64,000 nt of DNA. It comes from Escherichia phage PECP20. This document shows, piece after piece, positions 1 through 62,831 of the stretch. Position 1 is the stretch's first letter. Every line of letters begins with the position of its first letter. The stretch is from sequence record OQ873415.1, one strand, 5' to 3'. Below the pieces are notes generated by a model that did not search any database, had not been told where the DNA came from, and was given only the letters and a program-made list of their open reading frames with translations. Position numbers and translations under genes: made by a program.

Positions 1-164
1 CGCTTGGCGCATGTGACGTTGTCACGTTCAATTATTAACGAGAAGTTGGTCCCATGGATTTTCTCACGTGCTACCCAAACACCAGTAGTCAAACCATTAG
101 TGTAGAGTTTTTCAATAAACTTAGAGTTGTAGTGGTTTTCAAGACTGCTGTATTTCTTAAACAT
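1..164 (-). CDS. rnlB: RNA ligase 2 (Rnl2), N-terminal part; gene continues beyond window start
   Basis: Minus-strand translation from ATG at 164 gives [21 protein letters not shown]...[15 protein letters not shown], matching the T4 Rnl2 N-terminus including the KxHG nucleotidyltransferase motif I. Confidence 0.8.
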
Positions 165-255
165 AAATCACCATTATAAATAATAATATCAAAATAATTA
201 GCAGAGACTCTATCTCCGACCCGATGTTTAATTTGAATGGATAGAACCTAGATTC

Positions 256-281
256 ATTATACCATCAAAAAATGTAAAGCA
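256..281 (-). promoter_or_regulatory. MotA-dependent middle promoter upstream of rnlB
   Basis: Minus strand reads ATGCTTTAC (MotA box, plus 275-281) then 13 nt then TATAAT (plus 256-261); no sigma70 -35. Confidence 0.45.
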
Positions 282-283
282 TA

Positions 284-535
284 TTAGAACTTGATTTCTA
301 TCCAATGACCATCACGTTGGTCGTGATTAATTTTGTACTGAAAGCCATTATCACGTAACCACTGCCCGACTTGCTCGGTGATAGTTAAATCATTCTTTGA
401 TGGATAGTACGTGAATTGTGTCTGGCCTTTGTCAGCGGCTTTCTCTGCCATCACAGAGAAGTTAGTAATAAAATCACTCAACAAATTGGCTTTAATGGCC
501 AGAGCCCTTTCTCTTAATTCCTGTGCAAAACTCAT
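284..535 (-). CDS. hypothetical protein (83 aa)
   Basis: ORF in minus-strand operon upstream of rnlB; 4-nt overlap with upstream ORF; no recognisable motif. Confidence 0.5.
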   Translation of the reverse strand: MSFAQELRERALAIKANLLSDFITNFSVMAEKAADKGQTQFTYYPSKNDLTITEQVGQWLRDNGFQYKINHDQRDGHWIEIKF

Positions 536-732
536 TTCTTCACCTTTTTATTAATCAGACGTTTACGGTATACAACTTTTTCTTTTGCTTTAAACTTTGA
601 CCGAGCTGTCTCGGCTTTAGTCCATAGTAATCCAACTTCTTTAGGTTGTAAACCGATTTTTTGAGCAATTTCTACGAATGAAAATCCCGCCTCATGTAAT
701 GTATAAACTTCAACTTCAGCTCTCATAATCAA
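532..732 (-). CDS. hypothetical small protein with helix-turn-helix-like segment (66 aa)
   Basis: ORF with basic C-terminus and HTH-like stretch LHEAGFSFVEIAQKIGLQPKEV. Confidence 0.45.
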   Translation of the reverse strand: MIMRAEVEVYTLHEAGFSFVEIAQKIGLQPKEVGLLWTKAETARSKFKAKEKVVYRKRLINKKVKK

Positions 733-794
733 TCCAGTATTATTTGGTTTGTGCCATTATATACATCAATCTCAAGTTGTGGTTTATATGCTTT

Positions 795-820
795 AAAACG
801 AAGAAAGGGGCCGAAGCCCC
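795..820 (-). terminator. rho-independent terminator downstream of hoc
   Basis: GGGGCTTCGGCCCC hairpin (807-820) followed on the minus strand by TTTCTTCGTTTT, 6 nt after the hoc stop. Confidence 0.6.
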
Positions 821-826
821 TTACGA

Positions 827-2242
827 TTATGGATATGTATAAATGATACCAGTTTCTAGCGCAGTTTTATGAATGATGTATCCATTACGTGATTCTTGAA
901 CATCAACTTCTGGATAGTCTTTCATCATCTTCTGAAGCGTATAACGATGCAAGTAGTACTTACTACCCGGATCGTCGATTTTCCAATCTTTACCTTCTTC
1001 AGTCATTTTTTGGATTTCATCCATAACCCACCAACCACACCAAATGTAAGCTGAAGTACGGTGTGGAAGAGGATGAACATAAGGTAATTCACCTTCTGGT
1101 TCAATTGGAGTCCGTTCAGCAATAACAACTTCAGCGGTTGAACTAATTGTCTTTGGAGTATAATTATCTTTAGTTAATACTGCTTCAACTTTAATTGTAT
1201 GAGTACCAGCTGAGGAGGTATCAATACTGTAAGTATTGGTAGAATTACTTTCTGCTACGTTGTCTTTCTTCCAAGAATACACAATATTAGTATCACCTGG
1301 AGCACCAGTAACAGATGCTGTTAAAGTTGCAGTTCCACCAACAGTAGTATTAACTGATGGCGGAGATAAAGAAATGGTGGCACTATTAAATGTCGCATTA
1401 TTAGTTACTACTGTTGCTTCTGCTGAAATTTCTTTTGTAACATAATTTGTTGCAGAAACAGATACAGTGCATTTAAGAGTTTTACTTCCGACCTCGGTTG
1501 GAGTGAATTTATATGTAGCAGAAGTTGCATCCGGAATATTACTGTCATCCATTGACCACTGGAATGATGTAGTAGCACCTGAGGGTGCACTAGAGACATT
1601 TGCAGTTAAAGTAATAGGAACACCAAAGACCGTAGTCGGAGACTCAGGCGTAATTTTTAGTGTTGAAGAATTAGCCTTTTTATTTACAGTCAAAGAAACC
1701 GCTGATGATTCTACTGTTTTATCAACGTAATCAGTTGCAGTTACTGTGACGGAGCAAGTTATAGACTTAGTTCCTTCAGATGTTGGTGTATATTCAAAGG
1801 TTGATTGCTTTTGACCATCAGCAGCGACCCCGTCAACTTTCCATGTATAAGCAATAGCAGCACCACTAGGTTGATTACTTACATTAGCAGTGAATGTTGT
1901 TGCTGTTCCAATTTCTACTGCAGCCGGAGAAGCCGGAGTAACAGCGACGGTAGAATTATTTTCTTTCTTATTAACAGTGATAGTTGTTGACGCTTCAGCT
2001 ATTTCCGGATCTCCTGCGGAAAGTGTATTAGTTGCAACCACTTTAATTTTTTTTGTTCCTGCTGGAGAAGCAAGAGTATAATCCATTGTAGCAGCCGTAG
2101 ACTCCTGTGCTATATCATCTACAGTCCAGACGTATGTAATAGTACCATCTGGACTTTCACCTGCAGGTGTAGCAGTGAATGTTTGTGAACCTCCAATAAC
2201 CCCTGTAGGAGTTAAAGGAGATAACGTGACAGTGAATGCCAT
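827..2242 (-). CDS. hoc: Hoc, highly immunogenic outer capsid protein with four tandem Ig-like domains
   Basis: 471-aa Ser/Thr-rich protein with four repeated Ig-like units (recurring ...TxTA.V...Y.W... pattern) and a T4 Hoc-like C-terminal capsid-binding domain (YIWCGWWVMDEIQKM...). Confidence 0.85.
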   Translation of the reverse strand: MAFTVTLSPLTPTGVIGGSQTFTATPAGESPDGTITYVWTVDDIAQESTAATMDYTLASPAGTKKIKVVATNTLSAGDPEIAEASTTITVNKKENNSTVAVTPASPAAVEIGTATTFTANVSNQPSGAAIAYTWKVDGVAADGQKQSTFEYTPTSEGTKSITCSVTVTATDYVDKTVESSAVSLTVNKKANSSTLKITPESPTTVFGVPITLTANVSSAPSGATTSFQWSMDDSNIPDATSATYKFTPTEVGSKTLKCTVSVSATNYVTKEISAEATVVTNNATFNSATISLSPPSVNTTVGGTATLTASVTGAPGDTNIVYSWKKDNVAESNSTNTYSIDTSSAGTHTIKVEAVLTKDNYTPKTISSTAEVVIAERTPIEPEGELPYVHPLPHRTSAYIWCGWWVMDEIQKMTEEGKDWKIDDPGSKYYLHRYTLQKMMKDYPEVDVQESRNGYIIHKTALETGIIYTYP

Positions 2243-2251
2243 AAGTTATCC

Positions 2252-2920
2252 TTATTTTAATGTTACGAAAGAAGAATTACGAGTTTCACGAATTAGAACT
2301 GATCCATCGCGATTAATATAATAAATTAAGCTAAATAATGTTTGGTGAGCAGAAGCATGCACAAAACTCGTTGGGTGAGATTTCCAATCAGGTGTTTCGG
2401 CTATCCATTGATAAATCCACCAAGGAACAGTAACATATCCTGGACCTTTGCCTAATTTAATGAGTGTAGGACTAAAATTTTCAGGCAGAACAAATTTTAC
2501 TTCTTTATTTACCTCTGTCTCAGGCTCTTTTTCAGATTCAACAACCTTAGTAATTGCTTCTTCAAATTTATCATGGTCGAATTCTTTTTCTTGTTCGACA
2601 ACTTCTAATACTTCAACTTGTTCTGTTGGAGAATCAAACAACAGAATAGCTTCTTCTTTAACTTCTTCGTTGGTGAAATTAACACCGTCCACATCATCTG
2701 CGGCAGTAATTAAATCGGTGATAGATAATCCATCAGTTTCAGGTAATGGTTCATCAGCCAGTGCGTTAAGAGCTTCTTCGATATCAACAACAATATTATC
2801 GAATGATTTTGTTTTCTTAACACTAATGCCAAATTGTTTCGCATATTCGAACAGTTTAGCTTTGGCTTCCTTTTTATCGGAAAGAGCACGTAACTCTTCA
2901 ATATAGTCTTTATCGATCAT
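2252..2920 (-). CDS. inh: Inh, inhibitor of prohead protease
   Basis: 222-aa acidic protein at the T4 inh position between hoc and uvsW; C-terminal region resembles T4 Inh. Confidence 0.7.
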   Translation of the reverse strand: MIDKDYIEELRALSDKKEAKAKLFEYAKQFGISVKKTKSFDNIVVDIEEALNALADEPLPETDGLSITDLITAADDVDGVNFTNEEVKEEAILLFDSPTEQVEVLEVVEQEKEFDHDKFEEAITKVVESEKEPETEVNKEVKFVLPENFSPTLIKLGKGPGYVTVPWWIYQWIAETPDWKSHPTSFVHASAHQTLFSLIYYINRDGSVLIRETRNSSFVTLK

Positions 2921-2933
2921 AGTATTTCCTCAT

Positions 2934-2941
2934 TATAAATA
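2934..2941 (+). promoter_or_regulatory. late promoter (TATAAATA) for uvsW
   Basis: Exact TATAAATA 30 nt upstream of the uvsW ATG. Confidence 0.55.
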
Positions 2942-2970
2942 TAACTATATTTATTACATGGTAATTTGAC

Positions 2971-4485
2971 ATGACTGACATTAAAGTACATTTTTATGAT
3001 TTTAGTCACGTTCGCATTGAATGCGACGAAAGTACGTTTTACGAACTTCGTGACTTTTTTAGCTTTGAAGCCGACGGGTATAAATTTAACCCAAAATATC
3101 GCTATGGGCAATGGGATGGTAGAATTCGACTTTTAGATTACAATCGTTTGTTACCATATGGTCTTGTAGGACAAATAAAAAAGTTCTGTAACAATATGAG
3201 TTATTCTATATGGATTGACCCTAAAATCTTTGAGACTGAAGACCTTACCAGGGAAGATTTTGACGCGTGGCTTTCTAAACAAGAAATTTATTCGGGCAAC
3301 GCCAAAATCGAACCACATTGGTATCAAAAAGATGCAGTATATGAAGGACTAGTTAATCGTCGTCGAATTTTAAACCTTCCGACATCAGCAGGTAAATCAC
3401 TAATCCAAGCACTTTTATCTCGGTATTATCTAGAGAACTATGAAGGTAAAATTCTCATTATCGTCCCTACAACAGCATTGACAACCCAGATGGCTAATGA
3501 TTTTGTTGATTATCGCTTGTTTAGTCATTCGATGATTAAGAAAATTGGCGGTGGTGCTGATAAAGCAGACAGAGCTAAAAACGACGCTCCAATTATTGTT
3601 GGCACATGGCAAACGGTAGTTAAGCAGCCTAAAGAATGGTTCTCTCAGTTCGGTATGATGATGAACGATGAATGCCACTTAGCAACAGGCAAAAGTATTT
3701 CTTCAATCATCTCAGGATTAAATAATTGCATGTTTAAATTCGGTTTATCTGGCTCATTAAGAGACGGAAAAGCCAATGTAATGCAGTACGTAGGTATGTT
3801 CGGCGAAATCTTCCGTCCTGTTAGCACGTCTAAATTAATGGAAGACGGACAGGTAACTGAGCTTAAGATTAATAGTATTTTCCTTCGTTATCCAGACGAA
3901 TTCGCCACCAAATTAAAAGGTAAAACATACCAAGAAGAAGTTAAAATTATTACCGGACTAAAACGTCGTACAAAGTGGATTGCTCAACTTTCAGTCAAAT
4001 TAGCCAAGAAAGACGAGAACGCCTTTGTAATGTTTAAACATGTTACACACGGTAAAGAAATATTTGAAGCTATTAAAGAGCTTGGATACGAAAAAGTTTA
4101 TTACGTATCAGGTGAAGTTGATACTGAAACACGTAACGCGCTTAAAGTCATGGCAGAAAATGGTAAAGGCATTATTATTGTCGCATCATATGGAGTATTC
4201 TCTACCGGTATTTCAGTCAAGAATCTTCATCATGTTATTTTTGCCCATGGTGTTAAATCAAAAATTATCGTACTTCAAACAGTAGGTCGTGTGCTTCGTA
4301 AGCATGGTTCTAAAGCTGTTGCTACAGTTTGGGATCTCATCGATGACGCAGGTGTAAAACCTAAATCATTAAATACTAAAAAGAAGTATACTCATCTTAA
4401 TTACTTGTTAAAACACGGTATTGATCGTATCCAGCGTTACGCTGATGAGAAATTTAACTATGTAATGAAAACAATTAATTTATAA
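2971..4485 (+). CDS. uvsW: UvsW DNA/RNA helicase (SF2)
   Basis: 504 aa; N-terminus MTDIKVHFYDFSHVRIECDESTFYELRDFFSF and Walker A NLPTSAGKS, DECH box, strongly T4 UvsW-like. Confidence 0.95.
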   Translation: MTDIKVHFYDFSHVRIECDESTFYELRDFFSFEADGYKFNPKYRYGQWDGRIRLLDYNRLLPYGLVGQIKKFCNNMSYSIWIDPKIFETEDLTREDFDAWLSKQEIYSGNAKIEPHWYQKDAVYEGLVNRRRILNLPTSAGKSLIQALLSRYYLENYEGKILIIVPTTALTTQMANDFVDYRLFSHSMIKKIGGGADKADRAKNDAPIIVGTWQTVVKQPKEWFSQFGMMMNDECHLATGKSISSIISGLNNCMFKFGLSGSLRDGKANVMQYVGMFGEIFRPVSTSKLMEDGQVTELKINSIFLRYPDEFATKLKGKTYQEEVKIITGLKRRTKWIAQLSVKLAKKDENAFVMFKHVTHGKEIFEAIKELGYEKVYYVSGEVDTETRNALKVMAENGKGIIIVASYGVFSTGISVKNLHHVIFAHGVKSKIIVLQTVGRVLRKHGSKAVATVWDLIDDAGVKPKSLNTKKKYTHLNYLLKHGIDRIQRYADEKFNYVMKTINL

Positions 4486-4497
4486 GGGCTTCGGCCC
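4486..4497 (+). other. intercistronic GC hairpin between uvsW and uvsW.1
   Basis: GGGCTTCGGCCC immediately after the uvsW stop and before the uvsW.1 SD; no U-tract, so more likely an RNA stability/processing structure than a terminator. Confidence 0.4.
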
Positions 4498-4510
4498 TTA
4501 GGAGATAAAA

Positions 4511-4744
4511 ATGGTACTTGAATTTAAACAATTTTTATACGAAGCATCTATTGACGAATTCATGGGTAAAATTGCTAGTTGTCATACCCTAGAAGGGCTT
4601 GAAGAATTGGAAGCTTATTATAAGAAACGTATAAAAGAAACGGAATTAAAAGATACAGATGATATTTCTGTCAGGGATGCCTTAGCAGGTAAGCGTGCCG
4701 AACTTGAAGGCGACGATGATGAGGATGTGGAAGAAGACTTCTAA
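4511..4744 (+). CDS. uvsW.1: UvsW.1 small acidic protein
   Basis: 77-aa ORF with SD GGAG directly after uvsW, as in T4. Confidence 0.75.
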   Translation: MVLEFKQFLYEASIDEFMGKIASCHTLEGLEELEAYYKKRIKETELKDTDDISVRDALAGKRAELEGDDDEDVEEDF

Positions 4745-4748
4745 TTAA

Positions 4749-4776
4749 AAAAAGGCCCGACCTTTTTGGAAGGGCC
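4749..4776. terminator. probable bidirectional terminator between uvsW.1 (+) and the minus-strand uvsY operon
   Basis: AAAAAGG-CCCGA-CCTTTTT and GGCCC...GGGCC stems; on the minus strand the hairpin is followed by TTTTTTT. Confidence 0.5.
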
Positions 4777-4802
4777 AAAAACCATAGGCAAAAAAGGTAA
4801 CA

Positions 4803-4970
4803 CTATAGTAAAAGTTGGGTTTCGTTCAATTGCTCTTCTGAACTTTCTGAAACCGGCAATTGTTGTACATAATTATAACAAGGACCAGGATGTGCTGGAC
4901 CTTTGTCTGTTTCAACAACCAATGCAGAATCGATTGGAGTTTTACAGACAACACAAATCTTATCTGACAT
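4803..4970 (-). CDS. small cysteine-containing protein (55 aa), late-expressed
   Basis: ATG at 4970 with SD GGAGG; CxxC near N-terminus (MSDKICVVCK...); own TATAAATA late promoter at 5000-5007 and terminator at 4749-4776; the plus-strand ORF 4766-4972 in the track is its antisense shadow. Confidence 0.55.
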   Translation of the reverse strand: MSDKICVVCKTPIDSALVVETDKGPAHPGPCYNYVQQLPVSESSEEQLNETQLLL

Positions 4971-4999
4971 GATTGCCTCCTAAGTTGAAATTACATATC

Positions 5000-5007
5000 T
5001 ATTTATA
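5000..5007 (-). promoter_or_regulatory. late promoter (TATAAATA on minus strand)
   Basis: Plus-strand TATTTATA at 5000-5007, about 30 nt upstream of the ATG at 4970. Confidence 0.45.
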
Positions 5008-5227
5008 CCACTCGCATGCACATATCGATACCCATATCTTTTGTATAAAAATACTCGTCGATATACCCAGCAAACTTCCCTTTAATATAAAGGACGTCTT
5101 CGCCACAAGGATGGTCTGCCAGGATACGAATATCCTGACGTCGTAGACGATACTTTTCCATTAAGAATTTAATTTCAGTTTCAAATTCTTCATCATTATT
5201 AAAGGCATCTTCAATTGAATAACGCAT
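5003..5227 (-). CDS. hypothetical protein (74 aa), uvsY.-1 position
   Basis: ORF whose ATG overlaps the uvsY stop (TAATG); same position as T4 uvsY.-1. Confidence 0.55.
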   Translation of the reverse strand: MRYSIEDAFNNDEEFETEIKFLMEKYRLRRQDIRILADHPCGEDVLYIKGKFAGYIDEYFYTKDMGIDMCMRVV

Positions 5228-5640
5228 TATTGCCCCGCTTCAAATTCTCGCATATCTTGAATATGTTTAAGTGCAAAACTACGAGACTTGACTGCATCAA
5301 GTGCACCACTACAGAACTCAAGTAAAATTCCCCAGTATTGTAAAGTAGTCTCTATTTTAAGCACATCTTTATCTGCAGCCAGGACAGTTTTCATTTCAGA
5401 TTTCTCATATCGGTCCATACTGAATTCATCACCATCACCTCGTCCCGAGTAGTAGTCTAATCTTGCTTTTAGAGCAGTTTTCTTCTGAGTCTCTATACGC
5501 AACATTTCTTTACGAATAAATGAGTGCTTACGTAGCCATTTGCTGTATAACTTAACATTATTCGCCGTCTCATATTGCAACTTTGTCGTATCAATAGCTA
5601 AGTCTGCGTCTAACTCTTCCTGTAAATCTTCCAGCTTCAT
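5227..5640 (-). CDS. uvsY: UvsY recombination mediator
   Basis: 137-aa product from the internal ATG at 5640 (MKLEDLQEEL...KLQYETANNV...YYSGRGDGDEFSMDRYEKSEMK...) matches T4 UvsY; the 164-aa track ORF is an upstream in-frame extension. Confidence 0.9.
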   Translation of the reverse strand: MKLEDLQEELDADLAIDTTKLQYETANNVKLYSKWLRKHSFIRKEMLRIETQKKTALKARLDYYSGRGDGDEFSMDRYEKSEMKTVLAADKDVLKIETTLQYWGILLEFCSGALDAVKSRSFALKHIQDMREFEAGQ

Positions 5641-5695
5641 AATGTTCTCTCTTTTAACTAATAATCTCCCGGCTGTATCGGAAGGACCTAAAACC

Positions 5696-5720
5696 ATTAT
5701 ACATAGGTTGCCTTGAAGCA
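5696..5720 (-). promoter_or_regulatory. MotA-dependent middle promoter for uvsY
   Basis: Minus strand TGCTTCA (plus 5714-5720), 12 nt, TATAAT (plus 5696-5701). Confidence 0.55.
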
Positions 5721-6119
5721 TTACACTCTATTGCTTGACGCTAACTGAAGTTTGATTTGTTCGATATCATCAGGGTTGTCTACGACCGAAAATCTAATCT
5801 CTACTATAACTGTATAGTCATCATATACTGGCGTTACACTTACAGAAAGTTTGTCGATGCGTGGCTCATAGTTACGAACAGCTGCCTGGATATTACGCTC
5901 AATCGTATTGGCTGTAAGTGGTGTCATGTTCTCGAAAAGTTCATCAACCAAATCGCATCCAAATTCAGGGTCGAAGGGGCGTGAGCCTTTTCTAGTTGTC
6001 ACTATACCAAGAAGACTATTTTTAATAGAACGAAGTCCTACAGAACGAGCAACGTCCTTGTTCCAATCCATACGCATTTCTGGGTCGATATCTGAATAAA
6101 GTTTATTGATATTAGACAT
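5721..6119 (-). CDS. 25: gp25 baseplate wedge subunit
   Basis: 132 aa, T4 gp25-like throughout (MSNINKLYSDIDPEMRMDWNKDV...). Confidence 0.92.
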   Translation of the reverse strand: MSNINKLYSDIDPEMRMDWNKDVARSVGLRSIKNSLLGIVTTRKGSRPFDPEFGCDLVDELFENMTPLTANTIERNIQAAVRNYEPRIDKLSVSVTPVYDDYTVIVEIRFSVVDNPDDIEQIKLQLASSNRV

Positions 6120-6745
6120 TATAGTAACTCAAAGAATTCTTTGAGGCCTCGTATTGTGTGAACGTGTGACGCCCCACATTTGGGACATTTAATAGGGGTT
6201 GCCAGATAAATTGACGGTGATACCAAAAGATTTTTAATATTAATCATGTCATCTTCTGTTATAAGGCCGTAAAGGTCGTTTATTTCTGCTTCAGTTAAAT
6301 CTTCAACAGGGATGGACTCTCCATTGACAAAAACAGCCTCAATACATGAAGCAATCATTAATGCGATATTTTTATCATCAAATAATTTAGGTTGACGGAA
6401 CTTAATTTTAATACCACTGAACGAATACCAGGGATCCGCCTGTTCATCTAATTGAGTGTGCAATAAATTCATATAGACTTGAAATGAATGCCCACAGGAA
6501 CAATTCCAGGTGTGTTCTTGATTCACTTCACCTAATGAATGTGCCCACAGATTTACCAACAATAGCTCGGCTTCTTGTTTAGTCAAGTTTTTAGCATTAG
6601 AGCAATTAGTGATAATATTGTTCACTGCTGATTCAATAGTACCGGTAGCCCGCGCACCTATGAGTCCTAAATATTCTTTTAAAGTAAAGGCTCTACAATT
6701 CACTTCTTTATCGCCTAAACGTACGGTAAACGTATATTTGTACAT
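6119..6745 (-). CDS. 26: gp26 baseplate hub subunit
   Basis: 208 aa, same length and position as T4 gp26, divergent from gene 51. Confidence 0.85.
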   Translation of the reverse strand: MYKYTFTVRLGDKEVNCRAFTLKEYLGLIGARATGTIESAVNNIITNCSNAKNLTKQEAELLLVNLWAHSLGEVNQEHTWNCSCGHSFQVYMNLLHTQLDEQADPWYSFSGIKIKFRQPKLFDDKNIALMIASCIEAVFVNGESIPVEDLTEAEINDLYGLITEDDMINIKNLLVSPSIYLATPIKCPKCGASHVHTIRGLKEFFELL

Positions 6746-9195: not shown

Positions 9196-10964
9196 AACCT
9201 GAAGAAATGAAATCCATGCGTAGAAATAAGGTCATTGCCGATAATAAACCACAAAAAGTAGCTGCAACAGCAGCTACCGATTCATTAGAAGCATTGAATG
9301 ACATTTCATCAAAACTAGACGATGTCCAAGCCGCGTCTGAACTCACATCACAAAGTGTAGAAGATAAAGGCAATGGAATTATTGAATCAATTGGAGACTT
9401 AAAGAATTCGACAGATAATACTGCTGAAGGCACAGAGCTTATCGCAGAAGTTATTGAAAAACAAACTGAAGTCTCTAAAAGTATAAACGAAGTTTCTAGT
9501 GCAATAAGCTCTAAGTTAGACCGATTAGCTACATTGTTAGAGCAAAAATTACAAGCATCTACCGCTATTCAAAATACAGGAGGCACCTCTCTTGAAGTAA
9601 TTGAGAACGCGATACCTGTTAAAGTGGTTGAGAATGAAACTTCTGATGAGTTGTTTAAAGCATTACCTACACCTGAAAAGATTGATAATAAGCCAGACGA
9701 AGATTTCTTCCCGGTCCCGGTTCAAGAAAGTGCTAATTCTACTTCCGATTCTAAAGGCGGTATTAGCTTTAAATTGAGCGATAAAATTGCAATGCTCACT
9801 AAAACAGTTCAAACCGGGTTTAATAAATCAATATCAATTTCAGACAGAATTGCTGGAATGCTTTTCAAATACACTATAACGGCTGCTATTGAAGCAGCAA
9901 AAATGGCCGCACTTATTCTTGGTATTGTTATCGGTATTGATTTATTGATAGTCCATTTCAAATATTGGACAGACAAGTTCACTTCTGCCTGGGATTTATT
10001 TGATGAAAACTTTACTAAATTCTCCGACGAAGCTAAAGAGTGGGGTAAATTCTTAAGTGATATATTCACTTCTATTGACTCGATAAAACAATTGTGGGAA
10101 GCTGGAGACTGGGGCGGTTTAACCGTTGCTATTGTCAAAGGTGTAGGAACAGCATTAATGAACTTAGGTGAACTAATTCAATTAGGAATGGCTAAACTCT
10201 CCGCGTCTATATTGCGTGCTATAGGTTTTGGTGATACCGCGGACGAAATAGAAGGACGTGCTTTGGAAGGATTCCAAGAAACTACTGGGAACAAATTAAA
10301 GAAAGAAGACCAAGAGAAAGTCGCTAAATATCAAATGAAGCGTGACGATGGGGAATTAGGAACCGTTTCTAAAGGTCTTGATATGTTACAACGCGGCAAA
10401 ACATTCGTTACTAACTGGGTTCGTGGTAATGACAATAAAGAAGAGTTTAGTACAAGTGATGAGCGCGCTGCGGAATCAGCAAAATTAAAAGAGTTACCTG
10501 AAGAGGAACGTAAAGAGGCGTACATAAAAGCGAATGAAACTCGTGCTGCACTGGTTAGATTTGAGGATTATATCGATAAAATCGATATGACTAATCCGGA
10601 AAATGCTAAAAACGTCGAGAAGTCTTATGCTGATTTAAGTAAACTTATTAAAGACCCTGAACTTAATAAAACTCCTGTTGTTAAAAAGGAAATAGATGCT
10701 AGATTTGAAAAGCTAAATAATAAAATGGCTGAAGCCAAAAAGGCTCAGACAACAGTTAAGCCTGAATCTTCGACTAAATCTCCGGAAGCAAAACAAGTTC
10801 AGTCAATAGAGAAAGGACGTGCTTCTGAATCTAAACAACAGCAACCGGTAGCGGCGATTAGTAACACAAATAATGTCGTCAAAAAGAATACCGTAGTCCA
10901 GAATATGACCCCTGTAACAAGTACAACGGCTCCTGGAATTTTCCATGCCACCGGTGTTAATTAA
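9192..10964 (+). CDS. 29: gp29 baseplate hub / tail-length determining protein
   Basis: 590 aa, same as T4 gp29; ATGA overlap with gene 28. Confidence 0.9.
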   Translation: MKPEEMKSMRRNKVIADNKPQKVAATAATDSLEALNDISSKLDDVQAASELTSQSVEDKGNGIIESIGDLKNSTDNTAEGTELIAEVIEKQTEVSKSINEVSSAISSKLDRLATLLEQKLQASTAIQNTGGTSLEVIENAIPVKVVENETSDELFKALPTPEKIDNKPDEDFFPVPVQESANSTSDSKGGISFKLSDKIAMLTKTVQTGFNKSISISDRIAGMLFKYTITAAIEAAKMAALILGIVIGIDLLIVHFKYWTDKFTSAWDLFDENFTKFSDEAKEWGKFLSDIFTSIDSIKQLWEAGDWGGLTVAIVKGVGTALMNLGELIQLGMAKLSASILRAIGFGDTADEIEGRALEGFQETTGNKLKKEDQEKVAKYQMKRDDGELGTVSKGLDMLQRGKTFVTNWVRGNDNKEEFSTSDERAAESAKLKELPEEERKEAYIKANETRAALVRFEDYIDKIDMTNPENAKNVEKSYADLSKLIKDPELNKTPVVKKEIDARFEKLNNKMAEAKKAQTTVKPESSTKSPEAKQVQSIEKGRASESKQQQPVAAISNTNNVVKKNTVVQNMTPVTSTTAPGIFHATGVN

Positions 10965-10972
10965 GGATTATT

Positions 10973-12082
10973 ATGATTAGTGTAAAAGAAATAGTAGTAG
11001 ATGCAAAGGATTTAAATAAAGCAATCCCAGTCTCAGAAAGTGCTGGGCAAAGCACCAAAACCGAAACAACTACTAAAACTTATGTTGCTCAATTTCCTAC
11101 AGGAAGAGCAGCCGGAAATGACTCCACAGGAGACTTCCAGGTAACAGACCTTTATAAGAACGGATTATTATTTACCGCGTACAATATGTCTGCACGCGAT
11201 TCAGGATCCCTAAGAAATTTACGTCCGGCGTATGCCAGGACTTCATCTAATGGTATCTTATCAGATTTAACTGATAACGTGAAAGATGCAGTGACTAAAT
11301 TCTCAAGCGGATTGCTTCCTGCCGGAGCTAATAAATCTACTATAAATAAAACTCCTGTTGCTAATATACTTTTGCCACGTTCCAAATCTGACGTTGATAC
11401 AACTTCACATCGTTTTAATGATATCGGTGATAGCCTTATTACTAAAGGTGGAGGTACTGCTACGGGTGTTTTAAGTAACATTGCTTCTACTGCAGTCTTT
11501 GGTGCATTAGATTCTATTACTCAAGGGCTTATGGCTGATAATAACGAACAGATTTATACGACTTCTCGTAGTATGTATGGCGGTGCTGAGAACCGTACTA
11601 AAGTCTTTACATGGGATTTAACTCCACGTTCGACTGAAGACCTTATGGCTATTATAAACATTTACCAGTATTTTAACTATTTCTCTTATGGTGAGACCGG
11701 TAAATCACAATATGCCCAAGAGATTAAAAGTTATTTAGACGAATGGTATCGTTCAACGTTTATTGAGCCTATGACACCAGACGATGCTGTAAAAAATAAG
11801 ACATTATTTGAAAAGATTACTGCGTCATTAACAAATGTATTAGTTGTAAGCAACCCTACGATTTGGATGGTTAAAAACTTTGGTTATACATCTAAATTTG
11901 ACGGATTAACTGACGTATTTGGTCCATGCCAAATTCAAAGCGTACGTTTTGATAAAACTCCAAATGGGCAATTTAATGGTCTTGCTGTTGCTCCTAACTT
12001 ACCGTCAACATTTACGTTAGAGATAACAATGCGAGAAATTATTACATTAAACCGTTCTTCACTTTATGCGGGGACTTTCTAA
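10973..12082 (+). CDS. 48: gp48 baseplate tail-tube junction protein
   Basis: 369 aa at the T4 gene 48 position. Confidence 0.88.
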   Translation: MISVKEIVVDAKDLNKAIPVSESAGQSTKTETTTKTYVAQFPTGRAAGNDSTGDFQVTDLYKNGLLFTAYNMSARDSGSLRNLRPAYARTSSNGILSDLTDNVKDAVTKFSSGLLPAGANKSTINKTPVANILLPRSKSDVDTTSHRFNDIGDSLITKGGGTATGVLSNIASTAVFGALDSITQGLMADNNEQIYTTSRSMYGGAENRTKVFTWDLTPRSTEDLMAIINIYQYFNYFSYGETGKSQYAQEIKSYLDEWYRSTFIEPMTPDDAVKNKTLFEKITASLTNVLVVSNPTIWMVKNFGYTSKFDGLTDVFGPCQIQSVRFDKTPNGQFNGLAVAPNLPSTFTLEITMREIITLNRSSLYAGTF

Positions 12083-33315: not shown

Positions 33316-34176
33316 TTATACCGCCATTTTAGCTTTGATAGCTGGATGTGATTCGTAATTTTTAAGAATGAAATCACTCGGATTCATATGCTCTGTTACC
33401 CAATGAAGCTGTAATGTCGTGCTCCAATCAGAGAATCCTTCAGGCCAATCAATTTTAAGTTCACACAGTTCTTTAGGCTCACGACGAAGAACTTCTTTGC
33501 ATTGCTCAACATGGTTGCTGTAGATATGCGTGTTGCCGCCTGAGAACACTAAATCACCTGGGATAAGATTACACATCTTAGCCACAATATGCGTCAAGGC
33601 AGCGTACGAGGCAATGTTGAACGGCAGGCCCAAGAAAACATCTACACTGCGTTGATACCATTGTAAATCAAGATGTCCATTACGCACATTAAATTGATAG
33701 AACATATGACAAGGAGGAAGAGCCATTTGGTCAATTTCGGCAGGGTTCCAGGCAGAAACAATTTGACGACGATCAGTTGGTAATTTTTTAATACGGTCGA
33801 TTGTTTCAACTAATTGGTCCACACCACCGAAATCACGCCATTGTTTACCATATATAGGACCAAGTTCACCACTATGATAACCAAGGTCTTTTGCCTGATT
33901 TTCGTAATTATCGTCCCAAATAGTTTTACCTTCAATTAGACTACCATGAGTACGAAGACGTAATTCATTAACATTAGTAGAACCGGACATGAACCACAGT
34001 AACTCGGCAATACAAGCTTTCCATGCTAATTTCTTAGTTGTTACTGCAGGGAATCCTTTAGTCAGGTCCCAACGTAATTTAGTTCCGAACAGGGCAATTG
34101 TTCCTGTGCCTGTACGGTCGTCTGTTTCGTAGCCATTTTCTAGGATATCATTAATCAGGTATTGGTATTGTTTCAT
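33316..34176 (-). CDS. td: thymidylate synthase (intronless)
   Basis: 286 aa continuous ORF with ThyA core motifs (LPPCHMFYQF, active-site Cys context). Confidence 0.95.
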   Translation of the reverse strand: MKQYQYLINDILENGYETDDRTGTGTIALFGTKLRWDLTKGFPAVTTKKLAWKACIAELLWFMSGSTNVNELRLRTHGSLIEGKTIWDDNYENQAKDLGYHSGELGPIYGKQWRDFGGVDQLVETIDRIKKLPTDRRQIVSAWNPAEIDQMALPPCHMFYQFNVRNGHLDLQWYQRSVDVFLGLPFNIASYAALTHIVAKMCNLIPGDLVFSGGNTHIYSNHVEQCKEVLRREPKELCELKIDWPEGFSDWSTTLQLHWVTEHMNPSDFILKNYESHPAIKAKMAV

Positions 34177-57351: not shown

Positions 57352-59565
57352 TTATTTGGCCGCTTCCACGGCCTTCATGAATTTAACGATTTGAGCGACC
57401 TGTTCTTTAGAAAGAGTACCACGTCGTCCCATGTATTCTGACACAATATGATAATTGGTTTCGAATTCAATAACCATTTTATCATCATTATCGTAAGCGT
57501 TATCTTTAAGCTTATCGAAAATTTTAGCACATAGTTCTAACTTTTTATTCAGTTCTCTGTTAGTAGCACCTGAGAATCGATTCCATCCCCAACGATTATT
57601 TACTGTTGAGAGTTTTGCAAAATCTTTACTGATTTCTTTGTTTTTAAAGCTAAAATACTTACTAAGGAAGTTAAGCTCTTCATTACGAGTAATATGATTC
57701 AAATAAGGTTGAGCTCTACGACTTGGTGATACATACTCATCATAATCTACTTTATCGATTAGCATAATATAGTCGTTAATTGATTTTTCAAACAAACACT
57801 CTACTTCACCAAGTTTACGAACTTTCTTAGCAATCTGTTGGCGAACTACAGTGAACTCTTTAATACCTGACAAATCGGCAATACGAGTCAAGAAATTAGA
57901 ATCATAGTTCAACCAACCTTTATCTGCGTCAAGACATTCAGCATTAGAACGATTACGAACTATAGCATAACCTTGGATTTCATCTGCTTCACTTGCCGAA
58001 ATAAAGAGGTCTTCTGATACCCAAACATCGTTTTCATTCTTAAAGAATCGATGAGCACTTGGCGATTTAGGACGAGGCTCATTAGTCCGTTTCCTGACTT
58101 CAATCCATGGCTTAACGATTTGTAAAAGCTCTGAAGTCTTGTACATGTTAATGTTGTCGCCATCAAAGATAACTTTAAGGCGTTCCAGAAGTTTCATTGC
58201 ATCTTCGTCTGTAGGGTCAACGAATAGTACACTTTTACCAAAACCGCGTGGAACTTTACCAGTTAATTTAACCTCGTCTTTAGACATTTCAATTGAATTA
58301 AGAGCTCGCATTAATGGAACGCGTCCCTTAACGTCGTCAATAACAATTTCAACGTTTTTAATGTTAATGCCAATCAAACTGTTAATTGAAATGGTTGTCG
58401 TTGAGCTACCACTTTCACGAATACGACGAAGACGAGGGGATTCAACGATATCGTATACGACGCCAAGATTACACCACTCAGGCCCCATTTTAAAACGTTT
58501 GTACAACTCAGAATAAGTTAGTTGTTCTTTAGAGTATTTCAGTGATTCAATATTGGACCCGGCCTTTTCCATGTATTTACGAGCGGTATAGCCAAGAGAA
58601 TCAATTTCACGGAACACATGGCGTGGGTATTTACAATCAATCCATTTCTTAGAATCTTCAGCGAACAATTTAGCATCGATTTCTGCAACACGTTTATGGA
58701 TATTTGCTACTGTACGTTTATCAAATGACAATGCTTCACGAGACGGGGCTACATCTAGTTCACCCATAGGGAATTTAATATAAGCTGTAGTGCATCGCGT
58801 CATCATCCATGTTTGTTCTTTAATAACACTTCCGATCGGATATACAATACCACCATAAACAGCCATGATATTACCACGTTCACCCCATGGAGCTTCCTTG
58901 GCCAAATATACATCGTCAAATTCCGGGAAGTATTTGATATCTTTAACACCACGAACTTCTGCAATATCACCTAGAGGACGCATAACATATGCAATTTCGG
59001 ATGCAAACTTTTCAAAATCTTCCGGGTTAACCGGTACGACTACTTCTACACCCGTACGGTCATCAGGACCCATCTTATCTACAAAGGTCGGCTTAATTTG
59101 TGGACCCGTGTCATCTTGGTAGATTACGTAACCACGAACTTCACCATTGTGATAAGACGTAAGGTTAAACGTATCGGTATATGCTAGCGGAGCTTTAGAG
59201 CCGAGTCCGAATCCACCGATGAAATCGTTACTCGATGTTTTAGTTGAAGCAAAATATGAGTTATAGATTCCTGGCTCTTCGTCATTACCTCTAATGGTGA
59301 AATCACTCATACCAGGACCAAAGTCTCGAACTACAAAACGTGGGTCTAAACGACCTGGAGCCTGAACAATAAACTTATCAGTGCAACCGTTAAGAATTTG
59401 TCCATCGATACAGTTTGTAATTAATTCACGTACACAAGCCAATTCTTTGTTTGTATAAAGGTCATTAGACAAAATCTTATAAACTTTGCTATTGCCTTGA
59501 ATAGTGAATGCTGTGCTCTTACCGCCTGAACCAATAATCGTTTCTTTAGCCGTTTCAATAATCAT
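57352..59565 (-). CDS. rIIA: rIIA
   Basis: 737 aa; MIIETAKETIIGSGGKSTAFTI...VRELITNCIDG...FGPGMSDF...GGFGLGSK (GHKL-type ATPase motifs), T4 rIIA-like. Confidence 0.95.
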   Translation of the reverse strand: MIIETAKETIIGSGGKSTAFTIQGNSKVYKILSNDLYTNKELACVRELITNCIDGQILNGCTDKFIVQAPGRLDPRFVVRDFGPGMSDFTIRGNDEEPGIYNSYFASTKTSSNDFIGGFGLGSKAPLAYTDTFNLTSYHNGEVRGYVIYQDDTGPQIKPTFVDKMGPDDRTGVEVVVPVNPEDFEKFASEIAYVMRPLGDIAEVRGVKDIKYFPEFDDVYLAKEAPWGERGNIMAVYGGIVYPIGSVIKEQTWMMTRCTTAYIKFPMGELDVAPSREALSFDKRTVANIHKRVAEIDAKLFAEDSKKWIDCKYPRHVFREIDSLGYTARKYMEKAGSNIESLKYSKEQLTYSELYKRFKMGPEWCNLGVVYDIVESPRLRRIRESGSSTTTISINSLIGINIKNVEIVIDDVKGRVPLMRALNSIEMSKDEVKLTGKVPRGFGKSVLFVDPTDEDAMKLLERLKVIFDGDNINMYKTSELLQIVKPWIEVRKRTNEPRPKSPSAHRFFKNENDVWVSEDLFISASEADEIQGYAIVRNRSNAECLDADKGWLNYDSNFLTRIADLSGIKEFTVVRQQIAKKVRKLGEVECLFEKSINDYIMLIDKVDYDEYVSPSRRAQPYLNHITRNEELNFLSKYFSFKNKEISKDFAKLSTVNNRWGWNRFSGATNRELNKKLELCAKIFDKLKDNAYDNDDKMVIEFETNYHIVSEYMGRRGTLSKEQVAQIVKFMKAVEAAK

Positions 59566-59577
59566 ATTTTTCTCTCA

Positions 59578-59778
59578 TCACAAGTTACGTTTAAAAATTT
59601 CTGCTACTTCAAGAAGTTCTTCTTTAGTAGCTGTATCGGTTTGTATTTTATATCGAATTTCTTTAAAGCGTTCTTTAAAGGACTCTGCTGATTCGATATC
59701 AAAAAATCTTTGGATAAGCCGGAATTCCCGGAGCACTGCTTTATCAAAAAGTTCCAAGTCCACGTTATACGTTCTCAT
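59578..59778 (-). CDS. rIIA.1-position small protein (66 aa)
   Basis: ORF directly upstream of rIIA. Confidence 0.6.
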   Translation of the reverse strand: MRTYNVDLELFDKAVLREFRLIQRFFDIESAESFKERFKEIRYKIQTDTATKEELLEVAEIFKRNL

Positions 59779-59802
59779 AATATTCTCTTCAGTAGATTCC
59801 TA

Positions 59803-59857
59803 GGGCACTATTACTAAAGACCATATAATCTATCATCTTATGTGTAATAGTGCCTCA
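59803..59857. repeat. 11-bp perfect inverted repeat with about 30-nt AT-rich spacer
   Basis: GGCACTATTAC (59803-59813) and GTAATAGTGCC (59845-59855) in the intergenic region between the glycosyltransferase gene and rIIA.1. Confidence 0.6.
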
Positions 59858-59870
59858 GGCGATTCAGGAT

Positions 59871-60971
59871 TTACGCTGTGAAGATTTTATCCCACATCGC
59901 AACAACTGCATCTCGGTTATACTTCTTCCATACGGCTTCAGCACGTTTAACTCGAGCTTCGTATGTGTCAGTGAATTCTAATACAGCTTTTGTGTAAAGC
60001 GCAACTACTTCTTTCTTAGGAGTAGAGGAATCAATTTCTACACGCACAGTATCTGGGTCATATTCGAATGTCGCGTGCGGATAATCCTTAAAAACTAACT
60101 GAATCACAGGGACACCTTTAGAGATGGCTTCAATAGAACTATTCTCTACCGTACCCGTGTCAGGACACGTATTGATAAGTGCTTTAGCTGTTTTAAGACG
60201 TTCCATGATTTCACTGTGTGGAGCATCAATAATAACAGGATACTTAGCCGGTGGTGCCCATTTACTAGGACAGTATCCTGCACCATTTTCGCCTAGTGCT
60301 TTAATCGCTTCAAGAGCAACATCAGTACGACGCATTTTAGTGTCATAACGTTGTGCACTAATAATCAGATCAGTCGCCGGAAGAACTTCAGGTTTCTCAT
60401 TCAAACAAATAACCGGATAATCTTCGGCTTCAAACAACGGATTTGCTCGCCAATAATCATAATCAATTTTGTCAGTCAGACCTGAAGTCATATAACAATA
60501 TTTGCGTTCAAATTCACGGAAGGCTTTAGTAGGAGCATAACTCTTACCACCGTTCTTATGAATTTGAATAGTCTGGTCCCAAATTTGAACAATACCACGA
60601 GATACCGGTTCAAATGGTGTTGCCATAAAATTCTTATGAACTTTAGAGAGACCTGCGTCTTTAATTGCCTGAACGGTTAGTTTGGTCGGTTCCATTGTAA
60701 CAACGAAATCGTACTCATTAATGCCGGCTAGTTCAACAATCTTACGAGCCATAGTATAACTCATACCTAGACTGAATTTAGTCAGATGACCAACAGGATG
60801 ATGATTAACCTTCCAATCACCAAATGTGTCATTATCAAAACCGATATAATCAATATCGGCACCGATAGAAACTAAATATTTCAACACATTTAAATGTACT
60901 GCTTCAAGACCACCTTGTACACGTTCAGGATTAAATGGGACTGCACGAGATGGGATAAACATAACTTTCAT
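59871..60971 (-). CDS. GT-B fold glycosyltransferase (GT4-like); candidate DNA sugar-modification enzyme
   Basis: 366 aa; N-terminal MKVMFIPSRAVPFNPERVQGGLEAVHLNVLKYL and C-terminal ...TCPDTGTVENSSIEAISKGVPVI resemble the GT4 donor-binding region; no resemblance to T4 alpha- or beta-glucosyltransferase; located between rIIA.1 and gene 39. Confidence 0.65.
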   Translation of the reverse strand: MKVMFIPSRAVPFNPERVQGGLEAVHLNVLKYLVSIGADIDYIGFDNDTFGDWKVNHHPVGHLTKFSLGMSYTMARKIVELAGINEYDFVVTMEPTKLTVQAIKDAGLSKVHKNFMATPFEPVSRGIVQIWDQTIQIHKNGGKSYAPTKAFREFERKYCYMTSGLTDKIDYDYWRANPLFEAEDYPVICLNEKPEVLPATDLIISAQRYDTKMRRTDVALEAIKALGENGAGYCPSKWAPPAKYPVIIDAPHSEIMERLKTAKALINTCPDTGTVENSSIEAISKGVPVIQLVFKDYPHATFEYDPDTVRVEIDSSTPKKEVVALYTKAVLEFTDTYEARVKRAEAVWKKYNRDAVVAMWDKIFTA

Positions 60972-60984
60972 AATTAAGCCTTAT

Positions 60985-61015
60985 TAAAATTAAAATGAAG
61001 CTCCTAAAGGAGCTT
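60985..61015 (-). terminator. hairpin terminator at the gene 39 stop
   Basis: Minus strand AAGCTCC-TTTA-GGAGCTT then CATTTTAATTTTAAT. Confidence 0.45.
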
Positions 61016-62831
61016 AGGACATCCATTCTTTACGAAGTTCTGAATCATCACCCAACAACATTTCAAAGAGTTCTTTCCAATTTTCAGGAAGTTTAACTAC
61101 GTCGTACACAGGGTTCTGAATCATTTCACGATACTCTGACTTTTCAAGGGAGCCTAATCCCTTGATGTATCGAATACTATGCTTAGGCAGTGTATCTTTA
61201 ACTTCTTCATACTCAGCTACAGTATAAAACCATTTTTGAGTTTTGCCAATTTGTGCAATAATTACAGGTGTTTTAACAAAGCGAATACGTCCTTGTTCAA
61301 ACAATTCAGGCCAATTACTAAAGAAAGCAAGCAAAGCCGGATAGATACTTCCAAGACCGTCATGATCGGCATCGGTCATAATTGCAATATTACGATAGTT
61401 CGTATTCTCTGCCTTTTCACCAAGAATAAGACCTGTGATAGCACAGATATCGAATAACTCTTTGTTCTTCATCATATCAGCATATGACATACCCCAGCTA
61501 TTCATCACCTTACCACGTAATGGGAATCCACCGTGTAGTTCACGGTCACGAACATCAATGAGATATCCAATTGCCGAATCACCTTCTGTTAAGAACAATG
61601 TCGTATCTGCATCTTTACCACATTGGTTAGCTTTAATATGCTTATGAACCTTAGCTTTAGTTGCCTTTTTAGCTGCTTTAGTTTCTGCAGCCTTTTCTGC
61701 TGCCAATTTACGAGCTAATGCTGCTTCAACAATAGGCATAATCAAGGCTTCGTTTTTAAGAAGTGCCTGGGCAATTTTCTTAGCATCTAATTGGATATGA
61801 TTACGAATATCACCATACGTTGACGTTAAACGTTCTTTAGTCTGAGAATCAAAACGCATGTTGCTCATGTCTCGAATAAACATCAACATTGTGAGGCATT
61901 CTTTAACACGAGCTTTAGTGACTTCAATACCCTTATATTTCTTTTTAATACCTGGCAAAAGATGTTCGCAGATATCATCCATTACACATTCAACATGATG
62001 ACCACCATTTTTAGTATGGATGTTATTCACATAAGTTAAATGACGGAAGCCATCTGGTGATGTTGTGAATGCTATAGAGACTTTATCATTTTCTTGAATG
62101 ATGTTATCTTCACCAAATTGTTTAGCAAATCGTTTAAAATTACCATCGACCTTTTTACCATTAAATGTGAACTTGATATCAGGATAAACGACTGCCAATG
62201 TTTGAAGTCGATCTAAAGTAATATCTAAATAAATTTGAGATAAATTATGCTCTTCAAATGAAGTGAAATCAGGAGTGAAGATTACTTTAGTGCCTTTACC
62301 TTTAGATTTCTTAGAAGACCATGATTTGTTTTCCATTCCGTTTGAACAGTTAACAGTGATTTCATTTTCGCCATCTGACGTGATGCCTGTAAACAACGTA
62401 GAGAAGATATTAGTTAAACTACTCCCGACGCCGTTCATACCACCAGTCTTGCGTTCAGAGTCATCACCAAAGTTACCACCGGCCTTTGGAATAGTCCAGG
62501 CTGCTACAGGCCCAGGAATTTGTTCACCTGTTTGGTCGGTAACTAAACCTTGAGGAATACCACGTCCGTTATCTTCCACCGAAACTTGATTATTTTTAAT
62601 TTGCACATCAATTTTATTTGCAAACTTAAATGATGTACGAATAGCTTCATCAACCGAGTTGTCAATAATCTCATCGATTAATTTAACCAGGCCAGGAACA
62701 TATTCAACTTGTTGATATTTACCAAACAAAAAACGCTCGTGGGCTTCTTTAGCAGAAGAACCAATATACATACCACTACGTTTCTTAATATGTTCTACAT
62801 CTGACAATACCTTAATTTCATTTTTAATCAT
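61014..62831 (-). CDS. 39: topoisomerase II large subunit (GyrB-like), single fused 39+60 equivalent
   Basis: 605 aa with GHKL ATPase and TOPRIM regions in one ORF; T4 splits this into gene 39 (516 aa) and gene 60. Confidence 0.93.
   Translation of the reverse strand: MIKNEIKVLSDVEHIKKRSGMYIGSSAKEAHERFLFGKYQQVEYVPGLVKLIDEIIDNSVDEAIRTSFKFANKIDVQIKNNQVSVEDNGRGIPQGLVTDQTGEQIPGPVAAWTIPKAGGNFGDDSERKTGGMNGVGSSLTNIFSTLFTGITSDGENEITVNCSNGMENKSWSSKKSKGKGTKVIFTPDFTSFEEHNLSQIYLDITLDRLQTLAVVYPDIKFTFNGKKVDGNFKRFAKQFGEDNIIQENDKVSIAFTTSPDGFRHLTYVNNIHTKNGGHHVECVMDDICEHLLPGIKKKYKGIEVTKARVKECLTMLMFIRDMSNMRFDSQTKERLTSTYGDIRNHIQLDAKKIAQALLKNEALIMPIVEAALARKLAAEKAAETKAAKKATKAKVHKHIKANQCGKDADTTLFLTEGDSAIGYLIDVRDRELHGGFPLRGKVMNSWGMSYADMMKNKELFDICAITGLILGEKAENTNYRNIAIMTDADHDGLGSIYPALLAFFSNWPELFEQGRIRFVKTPVIIAQIGKTQKWFYTVAEYEEVKDTLPKHSIRYIKGLGSLEKSEYREMIQNPVYDVVKLPENWKELFEMLLGDDSELRKEWMS

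Follow-up and report, generated by a model that had tools for sequence, protein, structure and literature searches.

Some phages protect their DNA with a hypermodified base, arabinosylated 5-hydroxycytosine, whose nature has been clarified only recently. It guards against restriction enzymes and, by the literature cited here, also against some CRISPR systems, and the number of arabinoses appears to tune the protection. Arabinose was found in the DNA of phage RB69 by Thomas et al. (2018, PMC6024577), who nominated ORF003c, a protein of 366 residues with a GT-B assignment by HHpred and Phyre2, as the arabinosyltransferase. The nomination was based on HMM/HHpred searches, in which phage glucosyltransferases and GT4 enzymes were matched (PMC6024577). 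The cytosines of RB69 have since been described as wholly substituted: in their place the DNA has 5-hydroxycytosine with one or two arabinoses, and the doubly modified form is beta-D-Araf-(1->3)-alpha-D-Araf-5-hydroxy-dC (Lee et al. 2026, PMC13326640 section 23). In Mosigvirus DNA the arabinofuranose is joined directly to 5-hydroxycytosine via an ether bond, and there is no hmC (PMC13326640, PMC13390438). A flavin-dependent thymidylate-synthase homolog introduces the 5-hydroxyl at the level of dCMP, and gp46:47, from a cluster that in RB69 lies between gene 43 and uvsX, is proposed to attach the first arabinose (PMC13326640). The first linkage is proposed to be alpha and the second beta, UDP-Araf is the donor of the published working model, and Table 1 of PMC13326640 lists RB69p003 (gp3) as 'beta-arabinosyltransferase 2', which is a proposal not marked as confirmed.

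The same chemistry has been reported for close relatives. Mosigvirus NP carries identical mono- and di-arabinosyl cytidines in a ratio of 1:4 (PMC13390438), while Bas46 and Bas47 are doubly arabinosylated (PMC12923530). PMC13216743, which cites Mahler et al. 2025, reports that Bas46 became susceptible to a defence encoded on a plasmid once its arabinosyltransferase Aat had been deleted. For Acinetobacter phage DLP3, purified gp76 and gp77 together convert RB69 DNA from the di- to the tri-arabinosyl form with UDP-Araf, whereas each protein is inactive alone (PMC13326640 section 26), so that a partner may be needed for activity.

The gene between rIIA.1 and gene 39 is an ortholog of RB69 gp3

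The window analysed here is a stretch of 64,000 nucleotides from Escherichia phage PECP20 (OQ873415.1). It contains an ORF for a protein of 366 aa that had been annotated from the letters alone as a glycosyltransferase; its position and those of the surrounding features are listed in Table 1. Both motifs on which the initial annotation relied are present in the translation, GGLE at residues 20-23 and TCPDTGTVENSSIEAISKGVPVI at residues 268-290. The ORF is clearly a genuine gene and not a chance ORF, because PHROG 8302 matches it from end to end (residues 1-366 of 366, E = 1.6e-222, profile match), copies with at least 95% identity are encoded in 155 phage records (tblastn), and the codon differences from RB69 are in large excess synonymous (32 against 3 nonsynonymous).

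Table 1. Positions of the genes and RNA elements discussed in the text, numbered along the window.
Feature	Position	Strand	Description
Glycosyltransferase ORF	59871..60971	minus	ATG start, TAA stop, 366 aa (ORF call)
rIIA.1	59578..59778	same as ORF	downstream of the 366-aa ORF
rIIA	57352..59565	same as ORF	downstream of the 366-aa ORF
Gene 39	61014..62831		605 aa; upstream of the 366-aa ORF
Upstream hairpin	60998..61015	minus	7-bp stem, AAGCUCC-UUUA-GGAGCUU, then U-rich tail CAUUUUAAUU; overlaps the gene 39 stop codon (terminator scan)
Shine-Dalgarno-like AAGG	60979..60982	minus	7 nt before the ATG, upstream sequence ...AATAAGGCTTAATTATG; presumed role
Downstream hairpin	59799..59859	minus	long hairpin built on an 11-bp perfect inverted repeat, GGCACTATTAC/GTAATAGTGCC, with further pairs on its flanks; lies in the 92 nt that separate the ORF stop from the rIIA.1 start

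Downstream of the ORF, rIIA.1 and rIIA are followed on the same strand by rIIB. Upstream lies an unsplit fusion of genes 39 and 60, of which residues 1-474 are 79% identical to T4 gp39 and residues 473-605 are 89% identical to T4 gp60. The ORF is separated from its neighbours by 92 nt (from its stop to the rIIA.1 start) and by 42 nt (before its ATG). In agreement with the initial annotation, the equivalent interval of T4 is occupied by gene 60 and small ORFs, namely mobA, 60.1 and the split gene 60.

The closest characterised relative is RB69p003 (RB69ORF003c, gp3, NP_861693.1), which is of equal length and identical at 363 of the 366 positions (99%). The three substitutions relative to RB69 (E16D, N85H and T327I) are conservative, and nothing points to a noteworthy functional difference between the two proteins. 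In the RB69 locus (1-6500) the neighbours are the same, rIIA.1 and an unsplit gene 39, and both the 92-nt and the 42-nt gap are of equal size; this position of the Mosigvirus gp3 gene is likewise described in PMC13390438. The gene of Escherichia phage CAU_ECP01 is identical in DNA sequence to that of PECP20. The window stems from an RB69-like Mosigvirus phage: its final 12 kb are 98.4% identical to CAU_ECP01 and about 97% identical to many others. A profile search of PDB sequences gave a single strong match (E = 2.6e-195), the entries 9IQZ and 9IR0. These are 98% identical to the window ORF and are titled 'phage HY126 glycosyltransferase', in the apo form and 'with UDP', respectively (Foldseek; released 2025-07-16). 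Their source is likely to be the HY126 study by He et al. 2026 (Nat Chem Biol) that is cited in PMC13326640.

Both the full-length, high-identity match to PHROG 8302 and the location of the gene, with rIIA.1 on one side and the unsplit topoisomerase gene 39 on the other, place the protein in the Mosigvirus gp3/RB69 ORF003c family. We consider it probable, at about 80%, that the gene encodes a Mosigvirus gp3-type DNA arabinofuranosyltransferase, orthologous to RB69 ORF003c, that adds the second arabinose. The link to RB69 arabinosylation at this genome position, which the initial annotation drew, proved right (PMC6024577), as did the kind of enzyme it envisaged, a DNA-modifying protein with an anti-restriction role. 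The candidate is not a new one. The gene received its assignment in 2018; since then the protein has been modelled and crystallised, and the gene has reportedly been deleted in Bas46, whose Aat is probably the same gene as RB69 gp3. The present analysis is accordingly no discovery, and its value lies in the recognition of an already characterised gene and in the correction of the chemistry that had been implied for it.

Relation to the T4 DNA glucosyltransferases

An early observation on this ORF was its lack of resemblance to T4 Agt and Bgt, and our comparisons agree with it. BLASTP of the window ORF against T4 Agt gave no similarity (E of at least 7), and hhalign of the gp3-family profile against the T4 proteins returned probabilities of 0.5% for Agt and 0.2% for Bgt. 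Sequence homology to Agt or Bgt that would make the protein a T4-type hmC DNA glucosyltransferase was therefore not found in these searches. The T4 genes are also found at different places in the genome: b-gt lies between 42 and uvsX, and a-gt is flanked by 47 and 55. At the level of fold, T4 Agt (1XV5) has been linked to RB69 ORF003c by deep-profile HHpred with E = 1.9e-24 (Thomas et al. 2018, PMC6024577, Table 3).

Functionally, the two groups have much in common: like Agt and Bgt, the gp3-type enzymes are phage GT-B proteins that would use a UDP-sugar to decorate a modified cytosine in DNA after replication, with an anti-restriction role. The T4 enzymes, however, act on hmC with UDP-glucose, whereas the Mosigvirus literature describes 5-hydroxycytosine and arabinofuranose (PMC13326640 section 23; PMC13390438). 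The hmC acceptor implied by the initial annotation is therefore at odds with the published DNA composition (PMC13326640, PMC13390438), and the likely acceptor of this enzyme is a sugar rather than the base. Likewise, the sugar, which had been left unspecified, is D-arabinofuranose in these phages (PMC13326640, PMC13390438). Since Mosigvirus DNA lacks hmC, the in vitro transfer assay on hmC-DNA that had been suggested would fail.

Fold, motifs and donor site

The product of the window ORF is a GT-B, GT4-like glycosyltransferase, as had been read from its motifs. It has two Rossmann-like domains with GT-B topology, its Foldseek structural matches are of the GT-B/GT4-like type (E ~1e-8), and a structure with UDP exists for the 98%-identical protein (9IR0). 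The title of that entry indicates that the PECP20 protein would bind UDP as well. An AlphaFold2 model built from a 6-sequence alignment had a pLDDT of 62, with residues 115-188 below 50, and served for coarse fold matching only.

The sequence relations of the family are sparse. A Pfam scan of the window ORF gave no family even at E <= 10, so that the fold class is not assignable from curated sequence models. In the search of the gp3-family profile against PDB sequences, the matches besides 9IQZ were confined to non-significant ones to GT4 enzymes (E = 1.7-3), and when 1.84 billion representative proteins were searched exhaustively with the family profile, only 12 relatives emerged at E <= 1e-3. 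Judged by these searches, the gp3 family is narrow and phage-restricted. A second, word-indexed homolog search that started from a 13-sequence alignment added one distant relative alone, P0015, which is tied to the family by profile (E = 1.5e-4). P0015 is also the sole relative that passes the Pfam model Glyco_transf_4 (31.9 bits, the cutoff being 28.5), and it forms a sequence bridge from the gp3 family to GT4. A still more distant relative of the family adjoins TAGT and an hmdU-DNA-kinase homolog.

Residues that are invariant in the alignment of the gp3 family include G20, R208, R214, T268, T274, E281 and G286. The Glu in the nucleotide-binding helix "EA..G.PV" is E281, which was also singled out by Thomas et al. 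2018 (PMC6024577). Of the EX7E motif of retaining GT4 enzymes, only this second Glu (E281, invariant) is found, as judged from the alignment. The position that carries the first Glu in P0015 corresponds to T272 in the window ORF, and the residue eight positions before E281 is G273. The core gp3 family has an invariant E276, and hence E-x4-E instead of EX7E.

With bacterial GT4 enzymes such as PimA, BshA, WaaG, MshA and GtfA, the family shares the GT-B architecture of two Rossmann domains, the N-terminal Gly-Gly loop and the C-terminal '...E-A-x-x-x-G-x-P-V' nucleotide-binding helix. It differs from them by the lack of a Pfam match and of the first EX7E Glu, by an acceptor that would be a sugar on DNA, and by a proposed beta linkage. 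GT4-type enzymes are normally retaining. Because the scaffold is GT4-like, the proposed linkage is beta after an alpha-linked sugar, and the EX7E motif is half present, the enzyme may be either retaining or inverting. It is possible, though we regard it as rather unlikely, that the gp3 family represents an atypical type of glycan-extending DNA glycosyltransferase, inverting or with an unusual donor anomer. In uncultured phages, the distant relatives that neighbour TAGT and hmdU-kinase genes may likewise mark a wider, unannotated second-sugar clade of DNA transferases that serves modifications other than arabinosyl-5hoC.

Phyletic distribution and copy number point to the second arabinosylation step

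A tblastn search that used the N-terminal portion of RB69 gp46:47 as query found the family of the first transferase, gp46:47, in 348 phage records. They come from phages of Escherichia (among them JS98-like phages at ~70% identity), Klebsiella, Serratia, Enterobacter, Proteus, Yersinia, Edwardsiella, Shewanella (Thanatos) and Acinetobacter. With the window ORF as query, tblastn found the gp3 family in 211 records, 155 of them at 95% identity or more and the other 56 below 60%. By organism name the 155 records are from Escherichia, Shigella and other Mosigvirus-type phages, with a single copy among the matches listed; the 56 more distant ones are, among the matches listed, all from Acinetobacter phages, with two copies each. 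The number of gp3 copies follows the reported length of the arabinose chain: no copy with mono-arabinosylation (Thanatos), one with di-arabinosylation (RB69, NP, Bas46 and Bas47) and two with tri-arabinosylation (DLP3), the lengths being taken from PMC13326640, PMC13390438 and PMC12923530.

This pattern bears on the proposal of 2018, in which the ORF003c-type protein would be the first, base-proximal arabinosyltransferase and would act on the modified cytosine itself. The nomination by Thomas et al. 2018 (PMC6024577) speaks for this role, and so does the fact that the protein is a true GT-B enzyme with bound UDP (9IR0). Against it, Thanatos is mono-arabinosylated without a gp3 homolog, and many other genera carry gp46:47 without one. 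JS98 has a transferase of the gp46:47 type as well, while its rIIA.1-39 interval is a gap of 588 bp without an annotated gene. The proposal also predates both the intact gp46:47 ORF and the di-arabinose structure (PMC13326640). We therefore consider it improbable that the PECP20 protein attaches the first sugar.

Instead, the phyletic pattern and the copy number support the assignment proposed for RB69 gp3 (PMC13326640), by which the product of the window ORF would be the second, chain-extending transferase on Ara-5hoC. Transferases of the gp46:47 type (DLP3 gp79, Maestro_080 and the single glycosyltransferase of Thanatos) are likewise GT-B-like phage enzymes of the same pathway, with presumably the same donor. 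They differ in being ~314 aa long, more widely distributed and encoded next to the 5hodCMP synthase, and their proposed acceptor is the hydroxyl of the base, in alpha linkage. BLASTP between the window ORF and the gp46:47-type first transferase detected no sequence similarity.

The genomic context of the Acinetobacter homologs is informative in this respect. In phage Maestro, the homologs 078 and 077 are contiguous with genes for a nucleotide kinase, the first transferase, an annotated "dCMP hydroxymethylase" (5hodCMP synthase), a phosphatase and a bifunctional kinase/uridylyltransferase (UDP-Ara genes). Maestro_078 shares 43% identity with the window ORF and Maestro_077 shares 41%, while the two are 56% identical to each other. 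Both they and DLP3 gp76/gp77, which by the account in PMC13326640 and by gene order are gp3-family members, align with the window ORF end to end at 41-43% identity and share its invariant residues. Chain extension on DNA has thus been demonstrated within the family at this level of identity. The Acinetobacter pair is set apart by its two copies inside the arabinosylation cluster and by the requirement of both for the third sugar (beta-1,5). Since the Maestro_078 and Maestro_077 types form sister clades in a neighbour-joining tree, the Mosigvirus protein is co-orthologous to both, and an equation with one of the two DLP3 enzymes cannot be read from the sequences. In this tree, the Acinetobacter duplication is younger than the split from the Mosigvirus lineage.

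The joint action of DLP3 gp76 and gp77 on the third arabinose (PMC13326640 section 26) could be taken to mean that the PECP20 protein, too, is a non-autonomous partner, which needs the first transferase in a hetero-complex in order to act, or which chiefly tunes the processivity or extent of arabinosylation. The Mosigvirus gene is, however, present in a single copy, and in RB69 ~21 kb separate it from the cluster. R208, E276, E281 and G20, all invariant residues of the donor site, argue for catalytic competence, and the crystallised protein binds UDP in isolation. We accordingly give this possibility little weight.

A role outside DNA modification, in which the enzyme would glycosylate a host envelope lipid, LPS or a protein, is brought to mind by its nearest structural neighbours outside the gp3 family: PimA, WaaG and GtfA act on lipids, LPS, small molecules or proteins. 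Such a target seems very improbable, given that the family occurs almost only in phages with arabinosylated DNA, that both Maestro copies are located inside a DNA-modification cluster and that homologs act on DNA in vitro (PMC13326640). The more distant relative beside the TAGT and hmdU-DNA-kinase homologs also speaks for DNA.

By tblastn of the RB69 and Maestro pathway proteins, no other arabinosylation gene was found within the 64-kb window. In RB69 the pathway genes are located 21-27 kb beyond gene 39, and the first transferase is encoded in Mosigvirus records of 95-99% identity. By analogy with relatives that are 97-98% identical, the 5hodCMP synthase, the first transferase and the UDP-Ara genes of PECP20 are expected outside the window.

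Proposed reaction of the PECP20 enzyme

Taken as a second-step transferase, the PECP20 protein would be a soluble GT-B (GT4-like) enzyme whose C-terminal Rossmann domain binds the UDP-sugar via the TGTVEN-SS-IEAISKGVPV segment. E281 would act as the conserved ribose-binding Glu, and the N-terminal domain would contribute the G20-G21 loop. The donor would be UDP-Araf made by phage enzymes that are encoded outside the window, and the acceptor would be an alpha-D-Araf that a transferase of the RB69 gp46:47 type had previously attached to the 5-hydroxyl of 5-hydroxycytosine. A second D-arabinofuranose would most likely be transferred in beta-1,3 linkage, with the polymeric DNA as the presumed substrate. 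The product, beta-D-Araf-(1->3)-alpha-D-Araf-5-hydroxy-dC, would be a better shield than one sugar against restriction and other defences aimed at DNA. In Mosigvirus phages, among which are several phage-therapy candidates, the second sugar is likely to be determined by this gene.

RNA elements around the gene and its probable transcription

The initial annotation placed the gene behind a terminator hairpin and without an obvious promoter of its own, and both features were recovered. The upstream hairpin has a predicted free energy of -9.6 kcal/mol (z = -3.35), and its RB69 counterpart has an identical stem with the loop TTCG in place of TTTA. It may represent a weak intrinsic terminator or an mRNA-stabilising stem that is read through by gene 39 transcripts. 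A search of the 42 nt ahead of the ATG found no promoter of the sigma-70-like or T4 late (TATAAATA) type and no complete MotA box. The closest sigma-70-like match (10/12, 61249..61221) is located inside gene 39, ~250 nt upstream, and an incomplete MotA-box-like TGCTT is present at 61333. Transcription of the window ORF probably takes place before replication, by read-through from gene 39 over the weak hairpin.

An Rfam search of 59400..61200 gave one chance-level match (Histone3, E = 0.61), and no family matched the downstream hairpin. We also considered the downstream hairpin as part of a promoter-plus-stem-loop cassette, which was rejected because no promoter-like hexamers with legal spacing were present. 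This hairpin, at -28.5 kcal/mol (z = -5.2), is identical in CAU_ECP01, whereas the RB69 stem has one uncompensated A-C mismatch, and it is possibly a transcript 3'-end structure.

Relatives of the transferase

In Acinetobacter phage Maestro, two paralogs of the window's probable DNA arabinofuranosyltransferase are encoded in tandem (see table). These Acinetobacter phage paralogs share 56% identity with each other, and because they form sister clades, their duplication is later than the divergence from the Mosigvirus line. The library of representative proteins supplied P0007-P0010 and P0012, which stand for at least five additional deep lineages of the family at 35-40% identity.

The remotest member among the relatives, P0015 (∼20% identical), still passed the Pfam Glyco_transf_4 model. 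On its Logan contig the gene order is thymidylate-synthase homolog, HD/YfbR-like protein, AAA_28 kinase, TAGT, P0015 and a homolog of HMUDK_hel (hmdU DNA kinase), an apparent phage DNA-hypermodification cluster of a different kind. The content of this cluster suggests that second-sugar transferases of this lineage also act on modified bases of other types.

A tblastn comparison of the Maestro 5hodCMP-synthase homolog with the window gave a weak match on the minus strand (33487..33822, 24% identity, E = 3e-5), which is presumably the ordinary thymidylate synthase (td) of the phage and not a cytosine hydroxylase.

Features of the transferase locus and of related loci
Feature	Record	Coordinates	Strand	Remarks
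Tandem pair of transferase paralogs	L002, Acinetobacter phage Maestro	9001..11300		
P0015 and neighbours	L006, Logan SRR24908318 contig (24.6 kb)	10001..11128 and flanks		
Gene 39	window	61014..62831	-	single ORF of 605 aa; fusion of T4 gp39 and gp60 equivalents
Strong hairpin	window	59799..59859	-	inside 92-nt gap 59779..59870, between transferase stop codon and rIIA.1 start

Organisation of the rIIA.1-gene 39 region

The Mosigviruses carry the transferase gene between rIIA.1 and gene 39, whereas in phage JS98 (Dhakavirus) the corresponding interval of 588 bp (L007 2437..3024) contains no annotated gene. JS98 does encode the first-arabinosyltransferase type, ∼70% identical to RB69 gp47.

In the product of the window's gene 39, identity is 79% to T4 gp39 over residues 1-474 and 89% to T4 gp60 over residues 473-605; neither mobA nor 60.1 is inserted, and there is no trace of the gene 60 translational bypass.

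The hairpin 3' of the transferase gene contains a perfect inverted repeat of 11 bp (GGCACTATTAC/GTAATAGTGCC), and its predicted folding energy is -28.5 kcal/mol (z = -5.2). No U-tract is present at the hairpin, and an Rfam search of 59400..61200 returned no matching family for it. Its sequence is identical in the close relative CAU_ECP01, and the RB69 counterpart carries a single mismatch in its stem, which is uncompensated. T4 has at the equivalent place a gap of 54 nt with an early-promoter-like GTTTAC...TATAAT.
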